Positions 19,121 to 64,000 of a DNA stretch of 64,000 bases are shown here, piece after piece. The translations under genes were made by a program, and so were the position numbers. Source of the stretch: Desulfuromonadales bacterium (GTDB taxonomy: Bacteria; Desulfobacterota; Desulfuromonadia; Desulfuromonadales; SZUA-540). Where the stretch lies: the NCBI GenBank assembly GCA_033549025.1, contig JAWSUS010000008.1, forward strand, positions 1 through 64,000, written 5' to 3'. Position 1 is the first letter of the stretch. Each line of letters starts with the position of its first letter. The notes under the pieces are model-generated. The model had not been told where the DNA came from. It did no database searches and was given only the letters and a program-made list of their open reading frames with translations.

Positions 19121-19167
19121 GGTGTCCCCTCTCTGCTTTTGCCAGTTTCGCCGTCATCGTCATGTCC

Positions 19168-22100
19168 TCAGGTCAGGCCGAAGAAACGTTCGAAGAACGC
19201 ACCCAGCTTGTCCAACACCGTTTGCTTCTTCACCGCATGCCCGTTGTTTTTGTTGAACCTTGAAACCGGCGGCAGAATCTTCGTGATGGCGGTGCCGGTG
19301 GCAGGGATCGCGCCATCCCGAAACGCGTTGTCAACAAACGCCTTCGTCTCGTCCACATTGAGACCTTCATCCACGATGATCCGGTCAAGTTCCTCCGCCT
19401 TTTTGGCCGTAATGAAGGCGACCCATTCCGTATCGACCTTGGCGCTCACAGAGACGGAATCCACAAATTGTTCGATGAGGTCTTTTTTGTTGCGCAAGCT
19501 GGGGCTGGCATTGATCGCACGTTCGATAGTCGCCCGAATCTCTTTGTCTTCGCCCGAGCCTTTCTTCTTCAGGTACTTTTCGACCAGCATCAGAATGTAA
19601 TCAACGTTGATCTCGACCTGCTTGATCAGCTCGATCTCGAACACCACATCGTCGTTGATCGACTCCTTTTCCGCTTCCGACGTGCTGCGGAACTCAGCGT
19701 ATAGGTTGAGATACAGGCTCTGGTAATCCTGGAAGTCGCGCTGGCTCAAGATTTCGTTGCCTGCGAAATCGTCGAATGCCGTGAGAATATTTTTCAGTCG
19801 CAAGATCGAGCCAAAGAGCTTGATAAAGGCCTTCTGGGCCGCTTCGCCGACGATGGCCTTGCCGAGCGGAAATCCACCCACCAGCTCGCCAACCCGTTTC
19901 TCGTACTCCTTGTAGTACTCGGCGTAGGGCTTGAGCAGCACAATGCCCTTGGCATCCTTGTTGCCGAACAGGGCCAGAGCGTCGTTGGTTTCCTGTTCGA
20001 GATCGCGGAAGGAGACGATGTTGCCGTAAGTCTTGACCGAATTGAGGATGCGGTTGGTGCGTGAGTATGCCTGGATCAACCCGTGGGCACGTAGGTTCTT
20101 GTCCACCCACAGGGTGTTGAGCGTGGTGGCGTCGAAGCCGGTCAGGAACATATTGACCACGATCACCATATCCAGCTCGCGTTTTTTGAGACGCTGCGAC
20201 AAGTCTTTGTAGTAGTTCTGAAACTTGTCGGCCGAAGTGTCGAAGCTGGTGCCGAACAGGGCGTTGTAGTCTTTGATCGCGGCATCCAGAAAATCACGCG
20301 AGCTTTGATCAAGCCCTTCGGTTTCGAATTCCTCCTCGCTCAGAAGACCATCGACTTCTTCCTCATTGGCGGCAAAGCTGAAGATCAGGCCAACCTTAAG
20401 ACGCCGCGCGGGCGGCAGCTCTTTTTCTTGCGCGGAAAATTCGACGTAATAGCGTTTGGCGGCATCGATACTGGCTGTGGCAAGCAGCGAATTGAACCCG
20501 ACCAGACGCTTGCCATCATGGCGGTAGCTGGCACTGCGCTTGGTTTTCTGGTCGAAGTGCTCTCGGATATAGCTCACGACTTGGGTGATACGTTCCGAAG
20601 CCAGCAGCGCCCGCTCTGTGTCAATGGACGACACCTTTTTGTCCTTGATACTTGGGCGTGACTTGATCGTGTTGATGTAATCGATGCGGAAGGGCAGCAC
20701 ATTCTTGTCGTTGATGGCATCGACAATCGTGTAGGTATGCAGCTTGTCGCCAAAGGCCTGCTCAGTGGTGCGCCGCAGCGGGTTGCCGCCGGTTCCCGCA
20801 TTGTCGGCGAAGATCGGCGTGCCGGTGAAGCCGAACAAGTGGTAGCGCTTGAAGACCCGGGTGATTTCGGCGTGCATGTCGCCGAACTGGCTGCGATGGC
20901 ATTCGTCGAAAATCACCACCACATGGGCATCATAGACCGGGTGCTTCTTGTTGCTCGCCACAAAGCGGGACAGCTTCTGAATGGTGGTGATGATGATGCG
21001 AGCGTGTGGATTTTCCAGCTGTTTTTGCAGCACCGCCGTCGACGTGTTGGAGTTGGCCGCACCTTTTTCAAAGCGCTCGTATTCGCGCATGGTCTGGTAA
21101 TCCAGATCCTTACGGTCCACCACAAACAGCACCTTGTCGATCTCCGGCAGACCCCGCGCCAGTTGCGCCGCCTTGAAACTGGTCAAAGTCTTGCCGCTGC
21201 CGGTGGTGTGCCAGATGTAACCGCCTGCGGCAGTGGCCCCCAGTTGCCGATGATTGGTACTGGTCGCGATACGTTGCAGAATCTGTTCAGCCGCCACGAT
21301 CTGATAGGGCCGCATCACCAACAGCTTGCGGTCTACGTCGAACACGCAGTACCGGGTCAGGATGTTCAGCAGCGTATGCTTGGCGAAGAAGGTCTTGGCA
21401 AAGCCAGCAAGATCCGTGATCGGCTGGTTTTTCGCGTCGGCCCACCAACTGGTGAAGGCAAAACTGTTGGAGGTCTTCTGGCGCGAGCGTTTGCTGCGTT
21501 GCTCCGCCAGATGGCCGTCGCGAACCGTGTTGCTGTAATACTTGGTCAACGTGCCGTTGCTGATGACAAACAGCTGCACGTACTCAAAGAGGCCGGAGCC
21601 CGCCCAGAAGCTGTCGCGCTGGTAGCGGTTGATCTGGTTGAAGGCTTCACGGATGTCCACGCCACGGCGCTTGATCTCCACATGCACCATCGGCAGGCCG
21701 TTGATCAACACCGTCACGTCGTAGCGATTGGCCCGTTTGGCCCCGCCTTCAACTTGTGGCACCTCGTACTGGTTGATGACCTGCAAGCTATTGTTGTGGA
21801 TATGCCGCTTGTCGATCAGGTAGATATTCTTGACCGTGCCATCGTCGCGCTTGAGCACCTGAACATGGTCCTCCTGAATGCGCGTGGTCTTTTCCACGAT
21901 GCCGTCATTGGCACTGGAAATACAGGTACCGAAAAAGCGTTCCCACTCCGCATCGGAAAAAGCGATCTTGTTGAGGATTTCCAGTTGGAGGCGCAGATTG
22001 GCGACCAGATCGGCTTCAGAGGTGAACGGCAGGTAATCATAGGCCTGCAACTTCAATTGCTTGATGAAGGCTTTTTCCAGCTCGGCCTCAGACTGGTAGG

Positions 22101-22196
22101 CTGTCTCCCGGACCCTATCGGGCATAAATTCGGCGACGACCGTGCTTTCGTTTGAGAGAGCAATCGGTTCGATGCGGTACGGGGTGAGGTCTTCGC

Positions 22197-22200
<4 letters not shown>
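19168..22200 (-). CDS. hsdR: Type I restriction endonuclease subunit R
   Basis: RYDVTVLINGLPMVHVEIK, WHTTGSGKT, DECHR, FTGTP, MFLTGFDA and QAYSRTNR motifs. Confidence 0.96.
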
Positions 22201-23452
<1,252 letters not shown>

Positions 23453-23456
<4 letters not shown>

Positions 23457-23872
23457 GCGCCACCTCCCTGCAATTCGCGTTCAATCAGTTCGATGCCGGG
23501 CTGGCTGGCGTTCACGGGTTCGGGCCATTGTCCAACAGGCTGTTGGATAAATTCGGTGTGCAGTTTCCGGGTCATTTTTCGCCTCCGTCCAGCTTGCGCA
23601 CCCCGGTATCCGCCAGCAGCAGTTTCATTAAGGACAAAGCAGTTCAGACCCGCCTGGTTTTTAATTCCCTCGAATTCGGGGGAATTAAAACCGGGATTGT
23701 AAATTTCTTCCCAAATACCCAGGAACTCTATGGTGTTTTTGTTCCGCAGCCATTTTTCAATCAGCGCCAACCCGTTTTCGATATCACGCACCATGTCGGT
23801 CAGTGAAATGAAATCCATGTCATTGTCGGTATAGACAGTGACGGAGGTTCCTTTGACGTCAATCCTGGCCAT
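23453..23872 (-). pseudogene. KilA-N domain protein, apparently truncated or internally deleted
   Basis: DFISLTDMVR...IEKWLRNKNTIEFLGIWEEIYNPGFNSPEFEGIKNQAGLN.F is KilA-N-like; similarity breaks off afterwards. Confidence 0.7.
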
Positions 23873-23932
23873 GGGCGCACCCCTGTCCGTGAACCTGTCG
23901 GAATTCCCGACAGCTTGCTGTTTCAGCTTTTT

Positions 23933-25510
23933 TCATGCCTCTCCCCCCTCCAGATCGGCCACGATGGCATCAATGGCGGTTCGTAACTCCATCTGTCGCG
24001 CCACAATACGGGCGATCTCGGCATTCAGCGTTTTGATGTCCACCGCTTCGCGGTTGTCTTCCTGCTCCACATAGCTTGAGACGGCGATGTTGTAGCCGTT
24101 TTCGGCAATCTCGCTGTTCTCCACCAGCCGTGCGAAGTAGTCGATGCTCTTGCGTTCGATATAGGCATCCAGAATTTTCTGCTGGTGATCCTTGGTCAGC
24201 TTGTTCTTGGTGCCGCTGCGGGTGAATTCGCTGGATGCGTTGATGAACAGGGTGGCGTTGTCGTGTTTAGATTTTTTCAGCACCACGATGCAGGTGGCGA
24301 TGGTGGTGCCGAAGAAGAGATCCGGCGGCAGCTGGATAACCGTATCGATGTAGTTGTTGTCGATCAGGTACTGGCGGATCTTTTGTTCCGCGCCGCCGCG
24401 ATAGAGCACGCCGGGAAATTCGACGATGGCCGCCGTGCCATTCACCGCCAGCCAGGAGAGGATGTGCAGGGTAAAGGCGAGGTCGGCCTTGCTCTTGGGG
24501 GCGAGCACACCCGCCGGGGCGTAGCGCGGGTCGTTAATGAGCAAGGGGTTGGTGTCGCCATCCCATTTGATCGAGTAGGGTGGATTAGAGACGATGGCCT
24601 CGAAGGGCTCATCGTCCCAGTGCGCGGGGTCGGTGAGCGTGTCGCCGTGGGCAATGTCGAACTTCTCGAAGTTCACGTCGTGCAAAAACATGTTGATCCG
24701 GCACAGGTTGTAGGTAGTCAGGTTAATCTCCTGACCGAAGAAGCCCTGACGTACATTATCCTGCCCCAGCACCTTGGCGAATTTGAGCAGCAGCGAGCCG
24801 GAGCCGCAGGCCGGGTCGTACACCTTGTTAACCTCACTCTTGCCGACCACGGTGATGCGGGCCAGGAGTTCGGAGACCTCCTGCGGGGTGTAAAACTCAC
24901 CCCCGGATTTTCCAGCGGTGGAGGCATACATCTGCATCAGGTATTCATAGGCGTCGCCGAACAGGTCGATGGTGTTGTGCGAAAATCCGCCACCATTGCT
25001 CAAGGGCAGGTCGCCGATGGCATCGAGCAGCTTCACCAGCTTTTCATTGCGCTTGGCCACCGTGGGGCCGAGCTTGCTGCTGTTGACGTCCAGATCGTCG
25101 AACAAGCCTTTGATGTCGTTTTCGCTGTCGCTGCCTGTGGCCGAACCTTCGATGGCGGTAAAGACGCGGCTTAAGGTTTCGTTGAGGTTGGCATCATGGC
25201 GGGCCTGCTGGCGCACATTGGCGAATAGGTGCGAGGGCAGGACGTAAAAGCCCTTTTCCTTCACCGTCTCGTCGCGGCCGAATTCGGCATCAATATCACC
25301 GAGCGCGGCGTAGTCGAAATCCGGATTGCCCGCCTTGCGTTCCTGTTCATTGAGGTAGCTGGTCAGGTTTTCGGAGATGAAGCGGTAAAACAGCATGCCG
25401 AGCACATAGGTCTTAAAATCCCAGCCGTCCACACTGCCACGCAGATCGTTGGCGATGCGCCAGATGGTTTTGTGGAGTTCCGCGCGTTCGGTTTCCTTGT
25501 GGTTGCTCAT
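23933..25510 (-). CDS. hsdM: Type I R-M methyltransferase subunit M
   Basis: IWRIANDLRGSVDGWDFK, GEFYTPQEVS, YDPACGSGSLL and NPPY motifs. Confidence 0.97.
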   Translation of the reverse strand: MSNHKETERAELHKTIWRIANDLRGSVDGWDFKTYVLGMLFYRFISENLTSYLNEQERKAGNPDFDYAALGDIDAEFGRDETVKEKGFYVLPSHLFANVRQQARHDANLNETLSRVFTAIEGSATGSDSENDIKGLFDDLDVNSSKLGPTVAKRNEKLVKLLDAIGDLPLSNGGGFSHNTIDLFGDAYEYLMQMYASTAGKSGGEFYTPQEVSELLARITVVGKSEVNKVYDPACGSGSLLLKFAKVLGQDNVRQGFFGQEINLTTYNLCRINMFLHDVNFEKFDIAHGDTLTDPAHWDDEPFEAIVSNPPYSIKWDGDTNPLLINDPRYAPAGVLAPKSKADLAFTLHILSWLAVNGTAAIVEFPGVLYRGGAEQKIRQYLIDNNYIDTVIQLPPDLFFGTTIATCIVVLKKSKHDNATLFINASSEFTRSGTKNKLTKDHQQKILDAYIERKSIDYFARLVENSEIAENGYNIAVSSYVEQEDNREAVDIKTLNAEIARIVARQMELRTAIDAIVADLEGGEA

Positions 25511-25873: not shown

Positions 25874-26398
25874 TCACGGGCGTAACCACTGGCCGCTGGC
25901 GACTCTCTCCGTGTAAGACGGGCATGGCATCCAGTAAGTCCAGGCGGCAATCGAGGTGCGCCCGCGCAGCACCGCCACCATCACCCGCTGGTACATGCTG
26001 TGCCCGCCGGGCCGAAATCCTTCCAGCCGGTCGATGGGCGGCAGGTCGCGCTGCGGGTCGGTGAAGGTCACCAGCTCTCCATGGATCAGATCCCAATCTC
26101 CGGTCGGGCGGCCGAAGCGCGGTGTGCCGATCTTCTGCTGCCTGCGGGCGTCGGCCAGTGGATCGGCGGTGCCCCTGGCCAGGATCAGACCTTCGGGCAC
26201 CTCGATGGCCGGGAACCCGGCATGAAGGTGATAGAGCCTGCCCCAGACTACGGCTGGTTCGATGCTGCGGGCCTGGGCGCAGAAACGTTGATGGTTCCAG
26301 TAGCCCCGTTTCAGGGTGCCGTAGACGAAGAGTCGGAGGTTGGTCTCGGGACTGTCCTCCGGGTTTGTGTTCAGCTTTACGGTGTCTCCAATGTTCAT
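25874..26398 (-). CDS. Gamma-glutamylcyclotransferase (GGCT/AIG2-like)
   Basis: LFVYGTLKRGYWNH, GFPA, IHGEL and IDRLEG..Y.R motifs. Confidence 0.9.
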   Translation of the reverse strand: MNIGDTVKLNTNPEDSPETNLRLFVYGTLKRGYWNHQRFCAQARSIEPAVVWGRLYHLHAGFPAIEVPEGLILARGTADPLADARRQQKIGTPRFGRPTGDWDLIHGELVTFTDPQRDLPPIDRLEGFRPGGHSMYQRVMVAVLRGRTSIAAWTYWMPCPSYTERVASGQWLRP

Positions 26399-27192
26399 GC
26401 ATTCACTCCTTCGGGCAGTGTCCCTTTGCGCTCCTGGGGTATAAAGCGGAATTCGCTGTTGCTGATGGCCCGCACATCCTCATGGCGGATGGTAAGCATG
26501 GTCATGGGCGGCACCTCCAGTTCGCGCCAGCCCTTCTCGTTGTCCACGGCAAAGTCGATGAAGGCGGCCTCCGAGGCGTAGAGCACCACCCGGTGCTGGC
26601 GGTGGATGCGCAAGCAGAGCGGCTTGTTGCCCTTGAGCACGGTGATGGTGCCGGGGTCGAGCCGCGAGGCCAGCACGGCGCTCATCTGGCCGCGACAGAG
26701 GGCGAGCGCTTTTTTCAGCCCCTCCTGATCGATGGGGCCTTCGGGCGCGAAGCGGTGGGCCAGGCGGAAGATCAGCTCACTGTCCACCTCGGCGTAGCGC
26801 GGTAGCCCGAGGCGGCGGAACAGGTGGTCGGCGTTGTAGATGGTGCCGTTGTGGGTGCCGATGACGATCCCGGCCCGGATGGGATGGTTGTTGCGGTTGT
26901 TGAACTCGTTGCCCCGGGTGCGCCAGCGGGTATGCCCCATGAGAACGGTGGTCTCGTTGTCGACCTGCCCGAGCAGCTCCTGGAACGGTTTTTCGTACAC
27001 CAGCTCGTGCGCCCGCATCGGCCGCTTGAAAATCCGGTGGCTGCCGTCGGTCTTGAGCCAGGCCAGACCGGAGGCGTGCGGGCCGCGCTCCTCGCTGTGC
27101 AGCAGCATGCGGATGAAGAGCTCGCACAGGTAATCCCGCTCGTCGGGCCTCCTGCGCTTGCGGCCGAAGATGATGCCTACTTGTCCGCACAT
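26395..27192 (-). CDS. Class II (Ntn) glutamine amidotransferase
   Basis: N-terminal MCG, RGPHASG, GHTRWRTRG, NNHP, HNGTIYN and VDSE motifs; ATG at 27192. Confidence 0.92.
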   Translation of the reverse strand: MCGQVGIIFGRKRRRPDERDYLCELFIRMLLHSEERGPHASGLAWLKTDGSHRIFKRPMRAHELVYEKPFQELLGQVDNETTVLMGHTRWRTRGNEFNNRNNHPIRAGIVIGTHNGTIYNADHLFRRLGLPRYAEVDSELIFRLAHRFAPEGPIDQEGLKKALALCRGQMSAVLASRLDPGTITVLKGNKPLCLRIHRQHRVVLYASEAAFIDFAVDNEKGWRELEVPPMTMLTIRHEDVRAISNSEFRFIPQERKGTLPEGVNA

Positions 27193-27698
27193 GGAGCCGG
27201 GTCCTCCTTGCCGCCGAAGTTCTTGCCGAGCGGTCTCGTCCCCTCGAGGACGAAGGCCGCGTATTCGCGCCGGTGGTCGGCCAGCCACTCGGCCACCTCC
27301 GGGTAGCCCATCTCGGCGATCAGCCGGGTCACCTCCGGGTGATCGAGCATGTTGGTGCGCCCGGAGAGCCGCACCGTCTCCAGGGCTTCGAGGAAGCGTT
27401 CCGGCCAGGGATCGCTGGCCTTGTCGTCAGGCAGGAACTCGATCAGGCCGTGCCGCGCCAGACGGGTCAGAAACTCGGCGGCCGCAGCGGCGGCATCCTC
27501 CGGCAATGGCTGGGTCGGCCCGCCTTCGATGCCTGAGAGCACCTCGGTCATGTAGTCCCGGGGTGCTCGGCTGGCGGTAAATGGCGTCTGGCCGCGCATC
27601 AGCTCGACAACTTCGAGGCAGTCGGCGGCCTGCAGGGTTTCCCCGCTGCCAGGGATCGGATCGCCGTCCAGCGTGGTGGAACGGAGCAGGATTTTCAT
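27177..27698 (-). CDS. Hypothetical protein with C-terminal DUF5049-like domain
   Basis: LETVRLSGRTNMLD...V......GYPEVAEWL..HRREYAAFVLEG. Confidence 0.65.
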   Translation of the reverse strand: MKILLRSTTLDGDPIPGSGETLQAADCLEVVELMRGQTPFTASRAPRDYMTEVLSGIEGGPTQPLPEDAAAAAAEFLTRLARHGLIEFLPDDKASDPWPERFLEALETVRLSGRTNMLDHPEVTRLIAEMGYPEVAEWLADHRREYAAFVLEGTRPLGKNFGGKEDPAPCADK

Positions 27699-27709
27699 TG
27701 GGCACCTCC

Positions 27710-28669
27710 TTAAACAGTGAGGCCGGGAACTTGCCCGGCCTCGTTGGTGAGAGTGGTGGTTGTTTCGTCCGGAAGGACGTCCTCCAGTTTGGGGCGTCCG
27801 TTCTTGAAGGCGGCATCGCCGGGCATGTTGGCCATCAGATGCTTGCGGGCGGTCTTGAACTCGTCGCCGATCAGGCCGAGGTGGAGCAGGAATACCCGGA
27901 AGTCGTACTTGGCGCTCTGGGGATCGAAGTCCCGCTTGCGGCTGGAGGCTGCCCGGCCGTTGAGCGCCTTGGCGGCGACGGCGAGGCAGAATTGCAGGTA
28001 AGCCTTGATCCGCCCCGCGTGGAGGGTCGCCTCGAACCAGCGGAACTCCACCGTGCCCCGGTACCAGACGTTGTGCAGGTTGACCCCGTGGTAGCGGCTG
28101 TTGTCGTAATGCTGGGGCTGGCGGTTGTGGTAGCCGTACCAGATGCGGTTGAGCTGGTCCTTGGTGCGGGGGCGATGCTGTTCGATGCGCTGGATCAGCT
28201 CGTCGCTGACTGGCCGGGTGTAACGGTTGAGCCGGTCGCGGCTGATGCCGAGGGCGTGGAGGATCAGCGGCTCCTGCTTGTAGACGATTTTGGCCAGGTT
28301 ACCCAGGTGCCTGCCGTCGAAGGGCGCGGCGTCGATATGGATGTGGATGCCGCACTGGCTGTTGATCTTGCCACCGGCGCGGCGGATGGCCCGGACCACC
28401 TCCTGCAGTTGCGGGATGTCGTCGTAGCCGAGCACCGGGCTGACCACCTCGGCCCGCAGATGGGCCGGGACGCTGGTCAGGGAGGCGTCCCCCACCACCT
28501 TCCAGACGCGGCCGCGCAGGTCCTCGACCTCCCAGGGGTCGTAGTTGCTGGGGATGCCGACATGGCGGACCGTGCCGCCCACCACCGAGTGGATGGCCCA
28601 GGCGATCTGTTCCCGGGTGCGTTTTACGGTCTCGATCTCGATGCCGTACTGGATCTCATTCAGGTTCAT
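27710..28669 (-). CDS. Amidoligase family (COOH-NH2 ligase type 2) protein
   Basis: [48 protein letters not shown] and [19 protein letters not shown] motifs. Confidence 0.92.
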
Positions 28670-54511: not shown

Positions 54512-55375
54512 TTACGGAACCAGTTTGACCTTGGCCATGATGTCGGGGCGGGTAATGCCCTGACCGATCTCGGACCACACCAGCCAGCCGGTCTTGAAGC
54601 GGGTCTTCTGGTCGATGGATTCCGTCTTCAGGTTTTCACGCACCGGCATCTTCCCGACCTCTTCATCCGGGACGATGATGATCTCGTCCAGCGGCATGGA
54701 GGCGGTCAGCAGAATGCCGCCGGTGCCGTAGTTCTTGATGACACCCTTCTGGCGCAGCTCGAGCTTGGTCTGGGGATCGAGGTTCCAGCCGCGCATGTCG
54801 TTGAACCGACGGCCACGCATGACGATGTACTTCACCGACAGCTCCAGGTCCTCGATGATCGAGATGGCCTCGTTCAGTGCCTCTTCGGTGAGCAAATCGC
54901 CGGTGACCTCGATGGTGTTGGCCGCCGGGATGGCCGAGGAGAGCACCGAGATGGTGCGGCGGTCCATCTCCTTGCGGATGGCGTCGGCGGCGCTGGTCTG
55001 GATATCCATCAGCGTGCCGATGTTGCCATTTTTGAGGACGGAAACATCCACCATCGGATTGGAGTGGATGCGGTTGGTTGGGAACTCGACTTCGTCCTTG
55101 CCCACCTCCTGCTCCTGGGCGTCGCCGTCCTTGCTGATCCAGTGGGCCTTGACGGTCGGTTTCTTCTGGTAAACCGGACGTTCGCCCTTGGGCAGCGTGT
55201 GCTTGGTAAGCAGCAGCGAGGAGATCTCCTTGCGCTTGATCTCCTGTTCGATGGGCGCGGCAATGGCGGCGGCAAGCGCCCGCATGCCTTCGGGCGACTC
55301 GAGAGCCTCGCTCATGAGCCGCGCCATGGTTTCCATGTACTCCTGGGAGTGGATCTTCAACTGATTGGTTTTCAT
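54512..55375 (-). CDS. Major capsid protein (HK97-fold)
   Basis: 287 aa; position after protease/scaffold and decoration genes; AADAIRKEMDRRTISVL and terminal EIGQGITRP..MAKV. Confidence 0.75.
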   Translation of the reverse strand: MKTNQLKIHSQEYMETMARLMSEALESPEGMRALAAAIAAPIEQEIKRKEISSLLLTKHTLPKGERPVYQKKPTVKAHWISKDGDAQEQEVGKDEVEFPTNRIHSNPMVDVSVLKNGNIGTLMDIQTSAADAIRKEMDRRTISVLSSAIPAANTIEVTGDLLTEEALNEAISIIEDLELSVKYIVMRGRRFNDMRGWNLDPQTKLELRQKGVIKNYGTGGILLTASMPLDEIIIVPDEEVGKMPVRENLKTESIDQKTRFKTGWLVWSEIGQGITRPDIMAKVKLVP

Positions 55376-55393: not shown

Positions 55394-55756
55394 TTAGACG
55401 AGCAGGCGAAATTTGAGGACGCCGCTCTGTACGGAAATAGCGTGAGCGACCACGTGCTCTCCGGCCGCGACGCCGTTGGTCAGGCGACCGTTCGCCGAAA
55501 CTTTCAGGTCGTCTCCGGCGACGACGGTCCCTTCGAAGGCGTCGGTCTCGTAGACGCCGCCATCGCAGTAGATACCGGGCATTTCGCCACCGGCGTAGTC
55601 CTTGATCAGGATGCCGAAGGAGCGCTTGGTGGGATCGGTGTTGACGGCGAACAGGTCGTCGCCGACCACGCGGACCACCTGGCCGAGCTGGCCGTCGCCC
55701 TGGATGTGGCCGTCGCCATAGGCGAGGCTGCGGTGACACGGATTGATAAATGACAT
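55394..55756 (-). CDS. Capsid decoration/cement protein
   Basis: 120-aa Gly-rich beta protein (GGVYETD..F..AGDDLKVSANGRLT) between scaffold and capsid. Confidence 0.65.
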   Translation of the reverse strand: MSFINPCHRSLAYGDGHIQGDGQLGQVVRVVGDDLFAVNTDPTKRSFGILIKDYAGGEMPGIYCDGGVYETDAFEGTVVAGDDLKVSANGRLTNGVAAGEHVVAHAISVQSGVLKFRLLV

Positions 55757-55768
55757 GGTGTTTCCTCC

Positions 55769-56344
55769 TTATGCGTTGATTTCCGAGTGTTCGGGAGAGT
55801 CCTCGCCGACACGGTTGCGGTAAGCGGCCATGAACCCGTCGCGCAAGCGGTCCTCGAGCGACACCTTGCGGTCGTCCACATCGTGGGGCCGGACACCGGC
55901 GTCGCTGCGCAGCGGGGTTTCCGTCGATGCCTTGGCGGCGGGCTTGCCGCCCTGGTCGCTGTCGGCGGGTTTCTCTTCCTTGTCCTTGTCCGCTTTGGCC
56001 GACTTGGGCAGGCGCTCGTAAGCGGCCTCGGTGGCGGCGAAGGCTTCGTCGGACAGTTCGGCCAGGCGTTTCAGCTCGGCTTCCCGGTCCTCCTCGGAAG
56101 CGAAGGAGAGTCCCTGCTTCTCCAGACGGGTGAGCAGCTTCTTAGCCCGGGAGCGGCAGGCGGCCGCCTTTTGTTCGGCTTCCAGTTCCTGGACGCGTTT
56201 CTGCAGCTCGGCGACCTGGGCCTTGAGCTGCCGGTTTTCCTTTTCCAGGTCGGTAACACGGGCAGGATCGCCTTCCTGCTGGGCCGGTTTCTTCTTGGCC
56301 GCTTCGACGGCCTGGTCATCGGTGGGTTTGGTTTTGTCTTCCAT
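55769..56344 (-). CDS. Putative nested scaffolding protein (in-frame internal start)
   Basis: GAAGGAG-attccacg-ATG at 56344 (MEDKTKP) begins a charged coiled-coil 191-aa C-terminal region. Confidence 0.55.
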   Translation of the reverse strand: MEDKTKPTDDQAVEAAKKKPAQQEGDPARVTDLEKENRQLKAQVAELQKRVQELEAEQKAAACRSRAKKLLTRLEKQGLSFASEEDREAELKRLAELSDEAFAATEAAYERLPKSAKADKDKEEKPADSDQGGKPAAKASTETPLRSDAGVRPHDVDDRKVSLEDRLRDGFMAAYRNRVGEDSPEHSEINA

Positions 56345-58165
56345 CGTGGAATCTCCTTCGGGTTGGGATTGGTCGGGCTGGCTCTGAAGGGACGCCACCT
56401 GCAGAATCCTGGCGTTCTCGTCCGCGCCTTTGCGGTCGAGCAGTCCCAGTCCGGTGAAAGTGACGCCGTGCAGAATCTCGAAAACGGGTTGGCCATTGAA
56501 ATCACGGCCCTTGAATTTGCGCAGGTGGGTGCAGTAGTCGGCCTTGTTCTGGAAGCGCTTGTGGCAGACCGAGCATTCGCCTTCCTGGTAGTCGCACTCC
56601 ATGGAGACCTGGGAGATGATCCCGCGCTTCATCAGCTTGTAGGCCAGCCGGGCGGCCGGGGTGTCGTGGACGTACAGCTCGCCGACGCATTCCACGCGGC
56701 CGCCGTTGTCGTCCTCCAGGTAGTCGGCGGCGACGATGCCACCGACGATGTCGTTGAACTCCTGCGAATGCTGCAGATCGACCTTCTTGTTCACGGCCGT
56801 CATGTGCCGACCGGACAACTCCTCGGCGGTGAAGTGGTCGCCGTTCTTGTTGGTCCCTGTGCGGCAGAGCACGAAGCTGAACTGGGGGTCGCCCGCCGAT
56901 CCGACATCCATGGCCTCGGTCGCGAGGCGTTCACCATCGCCCAGCCGGATGTCCACGGGGATGCTGGTGTGGAAGTTCGCGGCGGCGGCCATCGGAACGG
57001 GTTTCTCCTCCCGCTCGGCGCTGGCCTTGGTCCCGGGAGCACAGACAAACAGACGCTCCTTGGCGTTGGAAGCCTCGCCGTGCTTGGAGGTGATGGCGTA
57101 GTGGTGATCCTTGGACTTCATCCGGCTCTGTTTGCCGAAGGAGCCGATGATCCGCTTCATCTCCTGCTCGTTGGGATAGGCGTGATCGCGGTAGGAAATC
57201 AGCCAGTGCGGAATGTGTTTGGCATTGCCGAGAAAGGTCTGGAAGAATTCGCTGGCGTTGGCCTTGGTGACGGTCTTGTGGTCGGTCTCGTAATACTTGA
57301 CCTTGGTGTCGGCCTTGATTTCGAGCCCTTCCCAATAGGTCATGAGCCCCTCCACGAAGTGGTAGGCCCGCTCGTAGTTGGTGGTCGAAAACTCGGTGGC
57401 GTAGGGCGGATCGAAGTAGGCCAGATCCGCCTTGGCTTTCGGCAGCAGGTCGTTGATGTCCTGCCGGTGGGCCTTGTTCTCCTTGTCGTTGTCGAAGACC
57501 AGGGCGTTGATGCGCTGCAGGTTCTTGCGCAGACGATCCTTGAACTCGTCGGGGGTGTCCTGGCGGCGGCCATAGTCGGTGGACGACGAGAAGTGGCCGA
57601 AGCCGCCTTTGCCACTCATGCAGGTCTTGCCGAGACCGAACAGGGCGATGTCTTTCTTAAAGCCGGAGAGCTTGTCGCAGTTGGCGCGGATGGTGTCGAT
57701 CAGCGCATGGACGCCCTTGGCGAAGAAAATGCCCTTGAAGTTGTCCTGAACGAAGCTGCCCGCCTTGGCGTTGTCGGCCAGGAGTGCCTCGATCTCGTCC
57801 TCGCTCAGGCGAACCGAGTTATTCTCGATGATCGCCTTGGCGGCGTGGTGGCAGTAGCGGAGCCGGTCGTTGGCGATGACCTGGAGGCCCTTGGTCTTGT
57901 ACATGTAGGCCACGACCGCAGACCCCGAAAAGGCGTCGAGCACGGTGCAAACGCCTTCCGGGGTATGCTTCCAGATCCAGTCGACGAGCTTCTGCTTACT
58001 GCCGATGTAGTTGGTGATGTACTTGGGGCGTTTCTCGGGAGGGAGCTCTTCAGGAGCGGACTGTTCGGCGGCCTCGGTCCCAAGCGCATCGGGATCGAGA
58101 GTCAGCGCCGCATCGGCCTCCAGTAGAAACGCCAGCCTTTCCAGGTCTGTGGCGAACAGTTCCAT
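55769..58165 (-). CDS. Fusion: DNA adenine methyltransferase (D12 class) + prohead protease-like + scaffold
   Basis: NYIGSKQKL, DAFSGSAVV, AND and YFDPPY; then NKNGDHF, DLQH, VSMEC, CSVC/YCTH and F.GLGLL...AD; then coiled coil. Confidence 0.85.
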   Translation of the reverse strand: MELFATDLERLAFLLEADAALTLDPDALGTEAAEQSAPEELPPEKRPKYITNYIGSKQKLVDWIWKHTPEGVCTVLDAFSGSAVVAYMYKTKGLQVIANDRLRYCHHAAKAIIENNSVRLSEDEIEALLADNAKAGSFVQDNFKGIFFAKGVHALIDTIRANCDKLSGFKKDIALFGLGKTCMSGKGGFGHFSSSTDYGRRQDTPDEFKDRLRKNLQRINALVFDNDKENKAHRQDINDLLPKAKADLAYFDPPYATEFSTTNYERAYHFVEGLMTYWEGLEIKADTKVKYYETDHKTVTKANASEFFQTFLGNAKHIPHWLISYRDHAYPNEQEMKRIIGSFGKQSRMKSKDHHYAITSKHGEASNAKERLFVCAPGTKASAEREEKPVPMAAAANFHTSIPVDIRLGDGERLATEAMDVGSAGDPQFSFVLCRTGTNKNGDHFTAEELSGRHMTAVNKKVDLQHSQEFNDIVGGIVAADYLEDDNGGRVECVGELYVHDTPAARLAYKLMKRGIISQVSMECDYQEGECSVCHKRFQNKADYCTHLRKFKGRDFNGQPVFEILHGVTFTGLGLLDRKGADENARILQVASLQSQPDQSQPEGDSTMEDKTKPTDDQAVEAAKKKPAQQEGDPARVTDLEKENRQLKAQVAELQKRVQELEAEQKAAACRSRAKKLLTRLEKQGLSFASEEDREAELKRLAELSDEAFAATEAAYERLPKSAKADKDKEEKPADSDQGGKPAAKASTETPLRSDAGVRPHDVDDRKVSLEDRLRDGFMAAYRNRVGEDSPEHSEINA

Positions 58166-58221
58166 CAACGTCTCCGGTCAGTTTGCTGTGCTCTCCGCGA
58201 CCTGCGGGGAGCGTTCAGCGG

Positions 58222-58255
58222 TTACTTACCGGAAGCGTCGGCGATGTGTCGGAGG
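58222..58255 (-). promoter_or_regulatory. Conserved bipartite motif copy 4
   Basis: + strand TTACTTACCGGAAG-cgtcggc-GATGTGTCGGAGG, upstream of the MTase-protease/capsid block. Confidence 0.75.
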
Positions 58256-58268
58256 GTGACGGTGAATT

Positions 58269-58622
58269 TCAGCGGGCGGGGTTCAGCCGGGCCAGAACGG
58301 CCTTACCGCAGGCGTCGATGGAGGGGTATTCGTCGGTCTCGGCGATCTCGGAAAAGACCCCGTCGTAGGGAGAGCGGGACAGTCGGTGGTATTCGAGAAA
58401 ATCCGCCGGAAGCGAGGTGGCCCCGGCCTCGACCAGACGGTTGACCACCCAGGCAGCCTCATCCTTGCGGTCGGCAAGCCCGTTCGGTCCCCGGTCAAGG
58501 TAGTACATCTCCACATCCAGACCGGGACCCGGTCCCTGAACCCAGACGCCCACGGGCACGTATTCCGACACGGTGGCTTGCCGGTCGGCGAGTATCGAGT
58601 CGATCATATAGCGCAGTTTCAT
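58269..58622 (-). CDS. Small protein resembling DUF3037; candidate immunity protein
   Basis: 117 aa; ATGA overlap with the upstream gene; LRYMID...EYVPVGVWV and FLEY....SP...VFS.I...........L.RL. Confidence 0.6.
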   Translation of the reverse strand: MKLRYMIDSILADRQATVSEYVPVGVWVQGPGPGLDVEMYYLDRGPNGLADRKDEAAWVVNRLVEAGATSLPADFLEYHRLSRSPYDGVFSEIAETDEYPSIDACGKAVLARLNPAR

Positions 58623-59131
58623 GACCAGTCCTCTGCGATCCGGAGATGTTCGGCCAGAAGCTGGTCGTCGATCCGGCGGAATCTCTCGGCGTTCTTCTTC
58701 CTGTAGGAGATCCAGCGTTGCCAATCCGCCGCGAGTTCGGGCTCCGAGACCGGCTCGATCATTTCGACATGGTGAATGCGGCCCAGGTCGTCGGTCAGAT
58801 CGACAATCAGCCACCCTTCGGCCGTCTTACCGTCATGTTCGGCTGTCAGTGTGTCTTCGACCCGGACATCCACCACCTTGACGGTGTGGGCGTGCTGGAA
58901 GCCCTCGTCGTAGCCGAGCGCCTTCCACAACAGCCAGAAATCGGTGCGCAGATGGTTGCCAGCGGCGTCGAAATGGGGGGCGATCCGGGTGACGGTGAAG
59001 CTGTCCACCAGGGTATCCAGAAAGAGATCCCCGGATTCTCTGACCGTCATGCGGCTGCCCCGGCTGTTGAACCAGTGCAGCGATTCTTGCAGCCGCCGTT
59101 TTTCCTGCTCGATAAAGTCCTTCATGGTCAT
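58619..59131 (-). CDS. Hypothetical acidic protein; candidate immunity protein
   Basis: 170 aa; ATG at 59131 overlaps the MuF TGA (ATGA). Confidence 0.7.
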   Translation of the reverse strand: MTMKDFIEQEKRRLQESLHWFNSRGSRMTVRESGDLFLDTLVDSFTVTRIAPHFDAAGNHLRTDFWLLWKALGYDEGFQHAHTVKVVDVRVEDTLTAEHDGKTAEGWLIVDLTDDLGRIHHVEMIEPVSEPELAADWQRWISYRKKNAERFRRIDDQLLAEHLRIAEDWS

Positions 59132-62100
59132 TGTTTGCGTTTGCTCCAGCTTTGCGGGGTATGGACGATGTCCTCCACCTTGCGCCCGTCGGGCAGTTTC
59201 TTGATGCCGCGCCGGGTGAAACTCTGGATGATCTCCCGGCGTTCGTTGTCGCTTCTGGCCACGATGAACTCGATGTTGTCCAGTAGCGTCACCGAGTATT
59301 TGAAGATGGTCTCGTTGCCATGGCGCTGCGAGAACCGCTTCCAATCATCGATGCTGGCTCCCCGGTTGCGCTGCACGTAGTCGTCAATCACCTTGCCGTA
59401 GGCGTCATGGTCATAGCTGATGGCGTCCATGCGCCGCAGCATCTGTTTCTTGAAGTAGAGGGCCGGTGAGGCGTCGCTGGCCGGTTGCTTCTTGATTCGG
59501 GTGAAGAAATAGCTCGCGCCGCCGGTCTGCATGTCGGCCACCGGGGACATTCCGCCCGGAGCCACGCCCATGCGCATCTTCTCGACCGTGCTGACCATGG
59601 CTCCGTTGTTCTCCATGATCAAGTCGATGAAGCCGGACATGCTCTCGCCGTTGGTCAGATCGTGGACCAGCGAATAGCCCTTCATCTGTTTTTCCAGCTC
59701 CTCATCGGTGATGTCGAACCGGAACTGGTGCCGGTATCCGCCCTTGGCGTCGCGGTCCAGAAAACCCGCCTGGTATTCGCCCAGCGGGTTGTATCCGGAA
59801 AGCTGGGTGATGTCCTGAACTCCCAGTTCCTTTTGCCAATAGCCGCGCAGAGCCTGGACCCGCTCGGTGGTGGTGGCATTGCGGTCGTCGAGGGATTTCT
59901 GCAGTCGTTTGTAGTCGGCGCTCTTGTCGGTCTTGCGGATGTAGGCGAGCTTTTCGAGATACATCTGCTCGGCGTTTTCCGCCGTGGCCACCCGGGTATC
60001 GATCCCAAGCTGTTCGAGCTTTTCCAGCATCGCCTCGACCCGTCCAGGGGTGGCGTCGCCGTCCAGGATCATTTCCAGCTCGCCGCGCTGGGCATAGAGG
60101 TTGGTGTCGGACCAGGGGCGATAGCGGACCCGGGTGCCGTCCTCGAAGGTGACGGTGTACTGGTGCCCGTCCTGCATGCGGGAGTTGTGATTGAACAGCG
60201 TCCGGTTGTCGATGTCGTCGGCCTCGACGGTAATGGTGCCGGACCCGATCCTGCGCTTGGTATGGGTCACCTTGCCACGTTCCACCTTGAACGGCGGTTT
60301 CTCCTTGGGTTTCTGCGCGTCGAGCTTGGGCAAGTACTGATCGAATACGCCGTTGGTGGCCCGGTCCCAGTCGACGGACTCTTCGATCTCCTTGACCCAT
60401 TTCAGATAGTGGTCCGCCATCTCCTTGACCTTGGGGTCGGCGCTCTTTTGCAGGGTCTCCAGTTTCTTGCGCAGGCGCAGGGCCTTGTCGATCTTGGTCC
60501 GGTTGTACTTGCCGTCGCCCACGTGGAAGTTGACGTTTTTGACGGCGTCCAGAATCGTCGGAAAGAAGCTGTCTTCGACCAGCGGTTGTCCCTTTTCCCC
60601 GGCCGCCGTCTGCACATACCTGCGCAGCACCTCGTCGATGCGGCGATCAGTGTCCGGCCGGATCTTCATCTTGACCACGGTGCGCTTCTTCCCCTTGAAG
60701 CTCTCGGTGAAGATCAGCGCGTTCTGGTCCTCCACGTCGCCGCTGTCGAAGGGCAGCGTCTTGCCCTGCCAGCCGAGTTTGCGGGCCTCCTCGACCAGGG
60801 TCTCTTCGGCGGAGGAGAGCAACTTTTTCTTCCCGGTGGCGGCGCTCAGCTTGTCGAAACGGAAGCCCCGATCCCCCAGCACATCGGCGTAATAGCCTTC
60901 GAAGTCCCGCCTGAGATTGTGTTTCCGCTCCAAGACCAGATCATAGAAATGCCGCAGCCCGGCCGGGTCCTTGGAAAACCGTCCCTCGGCGTAGGGCCGC
61001 AGCAGATCGAGGTAATCCTCGTCGGCGATCTTTTCGACTTCCTGGATGTAGCGAAAGGTCGGGTTCGGATCGACCCGTACCTTCCCTTCCTTGGCCGCCC
61101 GGAAGACCTTGTTGTAAAACGGCTCTTCCTCGCCGCAGACACCGTTGGGGTGATAGTCGAGCGAGAGCTTGTCCTGCCCCAGAAACTTGAATGCCTGGCC
61201 TTTGTCGATGCCGTAGACGCGACCGTCCCGGGCGCGGATGAACTGCTTGGAATGTCCGTCGTGGTTGGCGATCAGCCAGTCGACCACATGCTCGCGCTGG
61301 ATCTGCTCCAGTTCGATGGTGGTCAGATCCTGGGGCAGGATGTTGCGAAAATCGAAGTCGTCCCGCAGATCGGTGCGCCATTTCTGGATGGAGCCGGTGC
61401 GGCCGTTCAATTGGATGGTGCGCACCTCGATGGAATGGGGGTCGATCAGGCGGCCAATCTTGTAGGCTGCTTCCTCTCCGAAGGCGATGAACTCATCGTC
61501 CTTGCGGCCAACGGGCTTGAACAGCCATTTGTCGCCGTTTTCGTCGGTCCAGAACTCCTTTTCATGTGCGCCGCCGACAGCGGCCTTGCCGGTTTTCTTG
61601 AATTTTGACGGCAGACCTTTCTGCTGCCACGCTGAATCGACTGTGGCGAACTCCGCGCCTTTCTTGCCGATCTTGGCCTCGGGCGGCTTGACCGGGCTCG
61701 GCTGTGGAGCCGGTTTCGGCGGATCTTTCTTCGGCGTGGCGGGCTTGGCAGGAGCGGTTTTCTTCTTGCCGCCATGCTTTTCGGCCCAGGCGGCGTGCTT
61801 GGTGTCGATGCTGGCCTGAACCGCCTTGATTTTCGCGGGATCGGTCTCGGTGAAGAGCGTGGTCAGCTCGTCTTTGTTGGCCCACTGCCAATACTGGACC
61901 TTGGTCTCCTTGGCGAGCGTCTTGAGTTCCGTCGATTTCAGCTTGCCGACCTGGTCCTGGAAGAGCTGTTTCTTGAGGGCGATTTCCTTGCTGTGGGCTG
62001 CAAGCAGATCCTGGGGCAGATCGGTGCCGCCGGAAACCGCCTGTTCCGCCTTGGCAATCGCGTCGAGGAAATCCTTGTAGCCGGTTGGCGTGTCGGGAAC

Positions 62101-63717
62101 GACCACGGCCTTGGCGGCGTCTTCGAGGGCCGTTTTCTGTTTCAGGATCAACTTCTGCTTGGCCTCGTCGACCGCCTTTTTCTTGACCGACTCGGCCATG
62201 TCGGCACCGGCCTTCTTCTGCAGCGCCTCGACGAGCTGCTGTTTGTTCTTGAGGATGCCGATGCCGTGCTTCTGTTTGGCCGCCGCGAGTTCCTTGCCCA
62301 TCAGGCCGCTGTGGTCCACACCGGGCTCCAGCTTATCCAGCAGCTCGATGGTCTCCTGTTTGGTCATGTTGAGGGAGATGCCGTTCTCCTTCGCCATCTC
62401 CTTGAGCTGCTGGGCAGTCATGCCCCCCAGCCCCTCGGCGGGAGGGATCTTCGCCATCTGGGCGGCGAGCAGCTTGGCCTGTTTGAGTTCCGCCTGCTTC
62501 AGTCCGAGCAGCTCGACCAGTTCTTCCTTGGTCCGCAGCAGACCGATCTTATGTTCCTTGAGCTTGGCGCTGAGCGCCGCTCCGGCCAGGTCGCCGTGAT
62601 CGATCCCGGGTTCGGCCAGATCGAGCAACTTGATGAAATCGGCCTTGGTCCGGGCGATGGCCACGCCGTTCTGTTTCGCCAGGGTCTGGAGCTGTTTGAC
62701 CGTCAGCGAGCCGAGGTCGGCGATGTCGCCGTTTTCAAAGGCGCTCTTGAGCTTGGCATTCTCCTTGGCTTGGGCGTCGGCCATGCCTTCCAGTACGTGG
62801 GGCGGGAGAATGCAGGCGTCCCCCTGAGATGCCTGTGCGGCTGCCTTGGCGGCCATCTCGCTGCCGCAGACGGTCATCGGCCAAGCCACGATATTTGTGC
62901 AGCGGCAGTGCGGATGCGCGGGTTGCTGGGGGAACTTGTCGATTAGAAAGATCTTGCCGTCCAGGCCGCCGCAGACCGGGCACATGCGCTCGTCCTCCAT
63001 GGCCAGCCATTCCAGCTTCTGGATGCCGACCCGCTCGTGGAACTTGAGCCTGCCCATGTTGTGGGCGCGGAGGACCTCGGTGCGGGCGATCATCTCCATG
63101 CGGTACTGCGCCTTGCTGAACACCCGGCTTCCGGCCTGACGAAAGGAATCCTTGTCGATGATCACCTTGCCCATGTCCCGGACGATGTCGTCGGCTCCCT
63201 TGCCCGTGGCGACGCCGTTCAGGATGGTGCGCTTGATGCCGTCTGCGAGTTCGCGGTGGACGTCACCGGCGAGCGTGAGGTTGTACTGAGCCATGAAGTC
63301 GAGGGCGTTGGTGTCGACAATGGTGAACACATTGGTGGCCAACTTGTCGATGCCCTCGGGCTTCAGGTCGGCGTAGAACGGCAGCGCCGCGTCGGCGAGC
63401 TCTCCGATTCCCTGCTGGATGCCGAGCTTGAAGGAGTCCTTGGTCGTCTTGCGAAAGACCAGGGTCTGCTCCCGCTTGAGCCGCTTCATGGTGTCGTCGA
63501 GTTCGAGCTGGAGCTTTTCCAGCCCCTTGAGCGCGGCGAGCTTGTTGTCCGGCAGGGAGCCGAGGGAGCGGTACTGGAGAATGGCGCGGGCGACCTCGTC
63601 TTCGGCCTGTTTCAGCGCCTGGGTGAGCTGGGCCGTGACCTGGTCGTTGTAGCGGTTGCGGGCCGTCAGGCTTTTCAGGGTGGCGACCTGGATGCGCTGC
63701 TTGAGGTCCGATGGCAT
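59128..63717 (-). CDS. MuF/SPP1 gp7-family head morphogenesis protein with HeH-like repeats, HipA/PI3-4-kinase-like domain and C-terminal ART-like domain
   Basis: IARTEVLRAHN..EW...DERMCPVC..LDG..PAHPHCRC (MuF); GGAH..KWLFKP..E..AYKI..DWLIANHDGHSKQF..IDKG (kinase); VHDLT..SYFFTR..NETIF (ART-like). Confidence 0.85.
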   Translation of the reverse strand: MPSDLKQRIQVATLKSLTARNRYNDQVTAQLTQALKQAEDEVARAILQYRSLGSLPDNKLAALKGLEKLQLELDDTMKRLKREQTLVFRKTTKDSFKLGIQQGIGELADAALPFYADLKPEGIDKLATNVFTIVDTNALDFMAQYNLTLAGDVHRELADGIKRTILNGVATGKGADDIVRDMGKVIIDKDSFRQAGSRVFSKAQYRMEMIARTEVLRAHNMGRLKFHERVGIQKLEWLAMEDERMCPVCGGLDGKIFLIDKFPQQPAHPHCRCTNIVAWPMTVCGSEMAAKAAAQASQGDACILPPHVLEGMADAQAKENAKLKSAFENGDIADLGSLTVKQLQTLAKQNGVAIARTKADFIKLLDLAEPGIDHGDLAGAALSAKLKEHKIGLLRTKEELVELLGLKQAELKQAKLLAAQMAKIPPAEGLGGMTAQQLKEMAKENGISLNMTKQETIELLDKLEPGVDHSGLMGKELAAAKQKHGIGILKNKQQLVEALQKKAGADMAESVKKKAVDEAKQKLILKQKTALEDAAKAVVVPDTPTGYKDFLDAIAKAEQAVSGGTDLPQDLLAAHSKEIALKKQLFQDQVGKLKSTELKTLAKETKVQYWQWANKDELTTLFTETDPAKIKAVQASIDTKHAAWAEKHGGKKKTAPAKPATPKKDPPKPAPQPSPVKPPEAKIGKKGAEFATVDSAWQQKGLPSKFKKTGKAAVGGAHEKEFWTDENGDKWLFKPVGRKDDEFIAFGEEAAYKIGRLIDPHSIEVRTIQLNGRTGSIQKWRTDLRDDFDFRNILPQDLTTIELEQIQREHVVDWLIANHDGHSKQFIRARDGRVYGIDKGQAFKFLGQDKLSLDYHPNGVCGEEEPFYNKVFRAAKEGKVRVDPNPTFRYIQEVEKIADEDYLDLLRPYAEGRFSKDPAGLRHFYDLVLERKHNLRRDFEGYYADVLGDRGFRFDKLSAATGKKKLLSSAEETLVEEARKLGWQGKTLPFDSGDVEDQNALIFTESFKGKKRTVVKMKIRPDTDRRIDEVLRRYVQTAAGEKGQPLVEDSFFPTILDAVKNVNFHVGDGKYNRTKIDKALRLRKKLETLQKSADPKVKEMADHYLKWVKEIEESVDWDRATNGVFDQYLPKLDAQKPKEKPPFKVERGKVTHTKRRIGSGTITVEADDIDNRTLFNHNSRMQDGHQYTVTFEDGTRVRYRPWSDTNLYAQRGELEMILDGDATPGRVEAMLEKLEQLGIDTRVATAENAEQMYLEKLAYIRKTDKSADYKRLQKSLDDRNATTTERVQALRGYWQKELGVQDITQLSGYNPLGEYQAGFLDRDAKGGYRHQFRFDITDEELEKQMKGYSLVHDLTNGESMSGFIDLIMENNGAMVSTVEKMRMGVAPGGMSPVADMQTGGASYFFTRIKKQPASDASPALYFKKQMLRRMDAISYDHDAYGKVIDDYVQRNRGASIDDWKRFSQRHGNETIFKYSVTLLDNIEFIVARSDNERREIIQSFTRRGIKKLPDGRKVEDIVHTPQSWSKRKQ

Positions 63718-64000
63718 CAGCGGAGCTCCCGGCGGTCGATGAAGCGACAGGCCGGGGCGTCGAAGGTGCGCTCGCTGTTGTGGACCCGGCAGTGGTTGGT
63801 GTCAGCAATGAAGTGGCTGCACTCGTCGCACACGGCCGCATCGCCGGTGGACTCCAGGTCGCCCGACCAGACCAATGCCGCCTCCGCCGTGGGTTCATCG
63901 TCCTCGGCCGGAATCCCGAGCATCTTCCGGGCGCGAGGCACGCTGAGGATGCCGGAGACGACCATATCCACCACCGGCTTCACCTGCTTCTCGTCCATCA
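63717..64000 (-). CDS. C-terminal part of a gene running off the window, probably the portal
   Basis: Directly upstream of MuF (TGATG overlap); GILSVPRARKMLG is a portal-like end; Cys-rich tail CDECSHF..CRVH..AC. Confidence 0.5.
   Translation of the reverse strand, partial: MDEKQVKPVVDMVVSGILSVPRARKMLGIPAEDDEPTAEAALVWSGDLESTGDAAVCDECSHFIADTNHCRVHNSERTFDAPACRFIDRRELR

Follow-up and report, generated by a model that had tools for sequence, protein, structure and literature searches.

A single reading frame in the head module of a prophage joins a DNA methyltransferase (MTase) to a prohead protease and a scaffold, which raises the question of whether this gene is genuine and whether the fusion could carry the enzyme into the phage head. 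The gene (55769..58165) was found in a 64,000-nt stretch of DNA, hereafter the window (contig JAWSUS010000008.1, positions 1–64,000; assembly GCA_033549025.1, Desulfuromonadales bacterium SZUA-540). It belongs to a myovirus-like prophage that begins near 26 kb of the window and ends at a tmRNA gene (contig position 88438), next to a serine recombinase. The head genes and all parts of the fused gene described below lie on the minus strand.

Structure of the fused gene

A first-pass annotation had described one uninterrupted ORF of about 798 aa in the protease/scaffold slot. Translation of 58165..55769 indeed ran without a stop and gave a single 798-aa frame (P0001) composed of a leader, a D12 MTase, a linker, a prohead protease and a scaffold (translation and Pfam), and phrog_27806 covered its full length (PHROGs). 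A GGAG ribosome-binding site (58172..58175) lies 6 nt 5' of the ATG of the full-length protein, and a scan for promoters and terminators gave results at chance level. The slot was also correctly recognised, as the gene lies between the gene for a MuF minor head protein (59128..63717; 1529 aa with a 1250-aa C-terminal extension) and those for a small product in the decoration-protein position (55394..55756; weak match to phrog_673) and an HK97-fold major capsid protein (54512..55375; 31% identical to phage G gp27). The order of decoration and then capsid gene is that of phage G gp26–gp27. Beyond the MuF gene, the window includes the 3' end of a portal gene that runs past its edge (63717..64000; 23% identical to phage G gp14). 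A split or misassembled gene was ruled out, since the best 120 of 490 homologs were full length and contigs of four public runs showed neither indels nor joints in it; these runs were compared as contigs and thus bear on the presence of the gene, not on its transcription. Two small unassigned ORFs occupy the interval between the MuF gene and the fusion (58220–59125, minus strand). The contigs of all four runs diverge at 58220/58255, so this spot varies between copies.

A conserved N-terminal leader (residues 1–48; 58022..58165) precedes the D12-class amino-methyltransferase domain (residues 49–375; 57041..58021; Pfam and Foldseek). The MTase is complete, as had been proposed, with NYIGSK (residues 52–57; 58012–57995), FSGS (residues 79–82; 57931–57920) and DPPY (residues 252–255; 57412–57401) all present, and Pfam MethyltransfD12 (PF02086) covered residues 53–293 (E = 4e-25; 89.4 bits vs. 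a curated cut-off of 22). D77, F79 and G81 of motif I and D252–Y255 of DPPY were invariant in 20/20 aligned fusions, motif I standing before motif IV. The top fold match in Foldseek was M.CbeI (7m6b), with EcoDam (E. coli Dam) also near; because M.CbeI is an m4C enzyme, the fused MTase may act on cytosine rather than adenine. The profile for Dam proper (TIGR00571) scored 24.8 bits, below the NCBIfam cut-off of 114.85, and GATC specificity should therefore not be assumed. Counts of 4–6-mers did not point to a specific target site. With the C-terminal half of a two-domain MTase that adjoins an AlwI-family nuclease in a restriction–modification (R-M) system, the domain shared 35% identity. A quick tree built on 57 domains placed the phage MTases in a single clade against five R-M outgroups (SH-aLRT 100).

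A flexible linker (residues 376–426; 56888..57040) leads to the middle domain (residues 427–591; 56393..56887), which contains a Cys/His insert (C524–H547; 56525..56596) forming a predicted Zn site. Its sequence match to Peptidase_S78 was weak (residues 461–528; E = 0.005; 17.4 vs. a cut-off of 21), and the HK97 prohead protease profile TIGR01543 scored 21.4, below its curated cut-off of 59; the domain is thus a distant branch of phage G gp19 type for which the curated S78 and HK97 cut-offs are unmet. Sequence searches of the PDB returned merely coiled-coil and C2H2 zinc-finger look-alikes. An AF2 model built on 71 aligned sequences (mean pLDDT 87) was compared with 48,161 PDB chains, and the best matches were T4 gp21 (5jbl; Z 11.5, rmsd 2.5, 126 aligned) and three herpesvirus proteases; VZV protease (1vzv) reached Z 10.8 and 8j3s 8.2, while unrelated folds stayed at ≤ 6.7. 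Foldseek gave no PDB match of the model at E ≤ 0.001, yet its top 10 were all herpes proteases, and the best viral structural match was phage G gp19 in BFVD (E = 4e-17). H466 and S521, both inside the S78 match, were invariant in the 20 aligned fusions and presumably form the catalytic pair, and C524, C531, C534, C545 and H547 of the insert were invariant in 20/20. The middle domain, described earlier as protease-like with a Cys/His insert, accordingly shows the fold of T4 gp21 and herpes assemblin, with phage G gp19 as its closest relative. That the ORF is an MTase fusion and its middle domain a prohead protease can be regarded as nearly certain. Three distant gp19-type proteases (P0212, P0232 and P0237) bear intein or LAGLIDADG insertions. 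The C-terminal part of the protein, previously read as a coiled-coil scaffold, was modelled as long helices.

Conservation of the fusion and its exceptions

The fusion was full length and 97%–99% identical in the best 120 of 490 homologs. Among 159 loci (78 viral contigs, 80 genome loci and the window), a protease ORF was recognised in 145 and was closed at both ends in 133. All 133 closed ORFs were fused, with DPPY present (100 with a single MTase, 33 with tandem MTases), a frequency that is overstated because ranking the loci against the fused query favoured fusions. The 14 loci lacking a recognised protease ORF were explained by contig edges, by an N gap or by a mutated copy. Where copies were broken (L119, L145 and L149 among them), the break lay either within the MTase or beyond the protease and never at the MTase–protease junction. 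A query comprising protease and scaffold only (P0129) led to five loci, all of them fused; P0129 itself is doubtful as a solo protease, coming from a 1481-bp contig. A locus scan for P0154 found none. In a search with the protease alone, D12 occurred in 17 of the 63 proteins scanned from the best 150 of 921 matches; these 17 were all among the closest protease relatives, and the distant ones were without D12.

Two loci departed from this pattern. L169 encodes a solo protease-scaffold and, upstream of the terminase genes, a separate and leaderless homologous MTase (45% identity), and in L177 the protease-scaffold is likewise solo, the ORFs of at least 150 aa within 19 kb including no MTase. The L169 MTase nested inside the fused clade in the quick tree, on a long and compositionally odd branch, and may therefore reflect a later fission of the fusion; its separate state also indicates that the enzyme can be useful unfused. 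Most short homologs (16 of 85 were examined) retained the leader and resembled fragments or broken fusions, and P0308 and P0318 appeared to be further leaderless stand-alone MTases. One protein on a 235-kb contig (P0307) combines an MTase and the conserved leader without a protease and could be a stand-alone form targeted through its leader or else a broken fusion. Given L169, L177 and the stand-alone MTases, the fusion is the rule in one branch rather than a requirement of this head type. The first-pass annotation had looked to related prophages for conservation, which was found in all 133 closed ORFs of this fusion-biased sample, and had counted separate genes in relatives against its reading; such an arrangement occurs in L169.

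In relatives, the linker also houses small repeat domains or an additional MTase. Some of them (L132, L136, L145 and L153; P0127, P0135, P0141 and P0144) carried there one or two copies of a domain of about 95 aa that starts W-E-E-T-E-N-E and has no Pfam match, with or without an MTase. This tolerance of other small domains, together with the broken copies at L119, L145 and L149, would suit an MTase that is a passenger or structural spacer without catalysis, or a fusion that is a local accident. Such a reading is very improbable in view of the invariance of DPPY, D77, F79 and G81 in the 20 aligned fusions and the freedom from indels in the four runs. Moreover, the MTase is at least as conserved as the protease-scaffold: identity was 72% for the MTase vs. 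59% for the rest of the fusion in L153, and 79% vs. 61% in L132.

An active enzyme might instead serve regulation. In phage P1, methylation of pac offers an analogy, and methylation of a few phage sites (a packaging start, a late promoter or a lysis–lysogeny switch) could couple heads to packaging or gene control. The MTase does sit in the head operon, and its target may be narrow, given that the R-M enzymes most closely related to it (AlwI- and DpnII-linked) recognise specific sites. Regulatory methylation nevertheless seems improbable, because the tandem two-MTase forms resemble Type IIS methylases acting on both strands rather than a switch, relatives package DNA without a fused MTase, and no such site was identified.

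Probable head loading and the possible role of the methyltransferase

An AAGGAG ribosome-binding site (56353..56358) lies 8 nt 5' of an internal ATG (M608, at 56344), from which a nested scaffold-only product of 191 aa is predicted (residues 608–798; 55769..56344), consisting of a coiled coil and a C-terminal helix. A ribosome-binding site and start after the protease were found in 132 of the 133 closed ORFs, compared with 85 of 658 control windows, and the start codon switched among ATG, GTG and TTG across relatives. From these sequence signals, a scaffold-only product is very probably made from the internal start. A corresponding protease-only start common to relatives was not found in the MTase–protease linker (23 distinct linkers, with six loci skipped); the starts seen there were weak and limited to clades, namely M392 with GAGG about 12 nt away and an ATG with GGAG in the 93% clade. 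The lack of a shared start suggests that the protease is made solely with the MTase attached, and since prohead proteases act inside the prohead, the MTase is likely to enter as well.

Copies of a short motif around the MTase are consistent with this. A five-residue matrix trained solely on 21 scaffold-tail sites (consensus L/M-R-S/T-D-A; LRSDA at residues 752–756 of the window protein, 55912–55898), the motif having first been spotted by eye, matched P0001 elsewhere only at positions 15, 28 and 414, i.e., on both sides of the MTase: twice in the leader (residues 15–19 and 28–32) and once in the linker (LATEA, residues 414–418; 56926–56912). In 34 of 44 dereplicated fusions, those that could be divided into regions, the leader had 35 matches vs. 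6.7 in composition shuffles and the linker 35 vs. 11.7; the MTase was not depleted (26 vs. 25.7), and the protease gave 8 vs. 7.0. Motif copies also recurred at the new junctions of tandem-MTase fusions. The sequences are kin, which the shuffle test ignores, and among the controls (portal, capsid, decoration, neck and sheath proteins) the neck and sheath N-termini were enriched too, the portal N-terminus not; the motif copies flanking the MTase are therefore candidate self-cleavage sites, a lead rather than proof. In the MuF linker, the motif matched in just one of 22 sequences.

Taken together, the MTase is probably loaded into heads. The anatomy, coordinates, protease identity and conservation given or expected by the first-pass annotation all stood, and the prohead loading that it proposed is supported indirectly by the starts and the flanking motif; the nested scaffold start had escaped it. 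Following the model of lambda C/Nu3, in which scaffold and protease-scaffold co-assemble, scaffold made in abundance from M608 would assemble with the capsid protein along with a small number of long molecules, each protease arriving with its MTase. The protease would then cut L/M-x-S/T-D/E-A sites in the leader, linker and scaffold tail and so release a fragment of about 390 residues. This MTase fragment could remain in the head and methylate adenines during packaging or after co-ejection, in the manner put forward for P1 DarB. We assign a probability of roughly 0.55 to an anti-restriction role of the MTase through such loading.

The fusion may alternatively provide the MTase merely with late timing and a low copy number, so that an ordinary late methylase with a Mom- or Hia5-like role acts on progeny DNA in the cytoplasm before packaging, head entry being incidental. 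That L169 encodes its homolog on its own, close to the terminase genes, favours this possibility, and late non-specific MTases of Mu-like prophages are described as shielding DNA from many restriction enzymes (PMC3299994). Equal timing could however be obtained from a separate gene; the fusion is kept across many clades, with a second MTase added in frame and the motif present at the new junctions; and the nesting of the L169 gene in the fused clade, on its long branch, perhaps marks a later fission. We therefore consider expression coupling rather unlikely.

The site composition of the prophage bears on both loading and cytoplasmic methylation. CCGCGG, GGCGCC, GCGCGC, CGCGCG, GGGCCC, CGATCG and GGATCC were absent, and GCCGGC and CAGCTG occurred once each, where 20–105 copies were expected for each; the host showed no comparable loss of palindromes. 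In all, about ten six-base palindromes were nearly gone at 62% GC (window 26000–64000, and contig C8 to 82000), a purge as strong as that of the IncP plasmid R751 but affecting another set of sites. Palindromes without A were purged in 6/8 cases vs. 3/22 for those containing A (p = 0.003). A similar A-free bias was seen in two of three other single-MTase groups (p = 0.019 and 0.012; 0.157 in the third); it was not significant in the 62%–72% clade and was lacking in the tandem clade (0/8 vs. 3/38 purged), in L169 and in R751, the sole plasmid control. The bias fits protection by adenine methylation and could also be explained by differing host enzyme spectra. Methylation before packaging would account for the retained A-containing palindromes too, and the bias cannot discriminate between head loading and cytoplasmic methylation.

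A widespread prophage and known head-loaded enzymes

The prophage (window 26000–64000) was 90%–98% identical in DNA across L082, L085, L088, L093 and L120, and such copies came from Desulfobacterota, Gammaproteobacteria, a Verrucomicrobiota MAG and a Hydrogenedentales MAG. Over the 18.4 kb surrounding the gene, DNA identity to the window was 96.3% in Ectothiorhodospira shaposhnikovii and 97.8% in the Verrucomicrobiota MAG, with several Desulfobacterota at about 96%, and the tail module, fibre included, was 90%–96% identical in all five genomes tested. Chromosome-sized contigs labelled as Kiritimatiella and Mangrovibacter also encode proteins with 98% identity. The element thus appears to be a cross-phylum temperate phage. 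Tentatively, the essential maturation protease may act as a modular dock, with one or two MTases translated as part of it, cut free in the prohead and carried along with the genome into the next host; combined with the purge of those restriction sites that adenine methylation leaves exposed, this might let a phylum-hopping temperate phage cross restriction barriers.

Several neighbouring genes were also recorded. A Type I R-M system with Mrr lies at the left end of the prophage (18068–25510, minus strand), and the matching slot in genome G001 (locus L170) contains a BREX-like cluster. A cluster of amidoligase, glutamine amidotransferase and gamma-glutamyl cyclotransferase genes follows the tail-fibre gene (25874–28669, minus strand), and, outside the window, the right end of the prophage has a QatC-like gene nearby. 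A degenerate copy of the tmRNA 3' end (1054–1079; 24/26, E = 0.047) is perhaps the left boundary of a composite island of 87 kb, a candidate element that also contains groEL, a HelD-like helicase and arsenic genes. The MuF protein (59128–63717) comprises the MuF domain, short helical repeats and a weak match to a HipA-like kinase (E = 0.07); its C-terminal 550 aa are unassigned, with a best Atlas score of 0.87, to an unnamed match. The MuF extension is likely a second head-delivered cargo.

The fusion is real and conserved, and apparently undescribed in the literature searched: no description of it or of the cross-phylum element was found in open-access literature, judged from titles and abstract starts, and PHROGs annotates the protein solely as 'DNA methyltransferase'. 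If head loading is true, the covalent tie to the essential protease-scaffold would give every head the enzyme, and in a set copy number. As copies 96%–98% identical over 18 kb occur in Desulfobacterota, a gammaproteobacterial isolate and the Verrucomicrobiota MAG, cultured lysogens such as Oleidesulfovibrio alaskensis or Ectothiorhodospira strains make both cross-phylum phage spread and the anti-restriction tools testable.

In lambda C/Nu3, Mu I/Z and herpesvirus UL26/UL26.5, one gene yields a protease-scaffold precursor and, from an in-frame internal start, the scaffold. The window gene shares this nested internal start, and its protease fold is like that of herpes assemblin and T4 gp21; we know of no N-terminal enzyme in those systems. 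The closest named protease, phage G gp19 (31% identity, E = 7e-20), has the Cys/His insert in common with the fusion and is a free-standing 300-aa protein with neither an MTase nor a fused scaffold. It is called a head maturation protease in PMC12484599, whose statements on gp19 detection in virions contradict each other.

To our knowledge, virion loading of anti-restriction enzymes uses targeting peptides or MuF carriers. P1 DarB is described as a methylase-containing protein that is packaged in the head and protects DNA in cis (PMC5512222; PMC9024508), its packaging going through an N-terminal signal (PMC9024508). DarB is a 250-kDa protein, paired with a SWI2/SNF2 helicase and loaded via a 30-residue signal and other Dar proteins, whereas the window fusion has a lone D12 domain covalently joined to an essential protease-scaffold. 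Domain profile searches found no helicase domain in P0001, which is thus not a DarB member. Hia5, Hin1523 and Nma1821 are adenine MTases of Mu-like prophages described as protecting phage DNA (PMC3299994). MTases of the Hia5 type are nearly non-specific and encoded by separate genes at the mom position; of the MTases compared by sequence, those nearest to the fused domain are two-domain Type II R-M enzymes, in their C-terminal half. In MuF-effector fusions, an enzyme is joined to a head protein, with likely delivery (PMC5512222). There the carrier is MuF, whereas here it is the maturation protease-scaffold, and this prophage has a MuF fusion too. With a design like that of lambda C/Nu3 and an effect like that of DarB, the fused gene would represent a variant of virion-loaded anti-restriction, the loading of which we infer.
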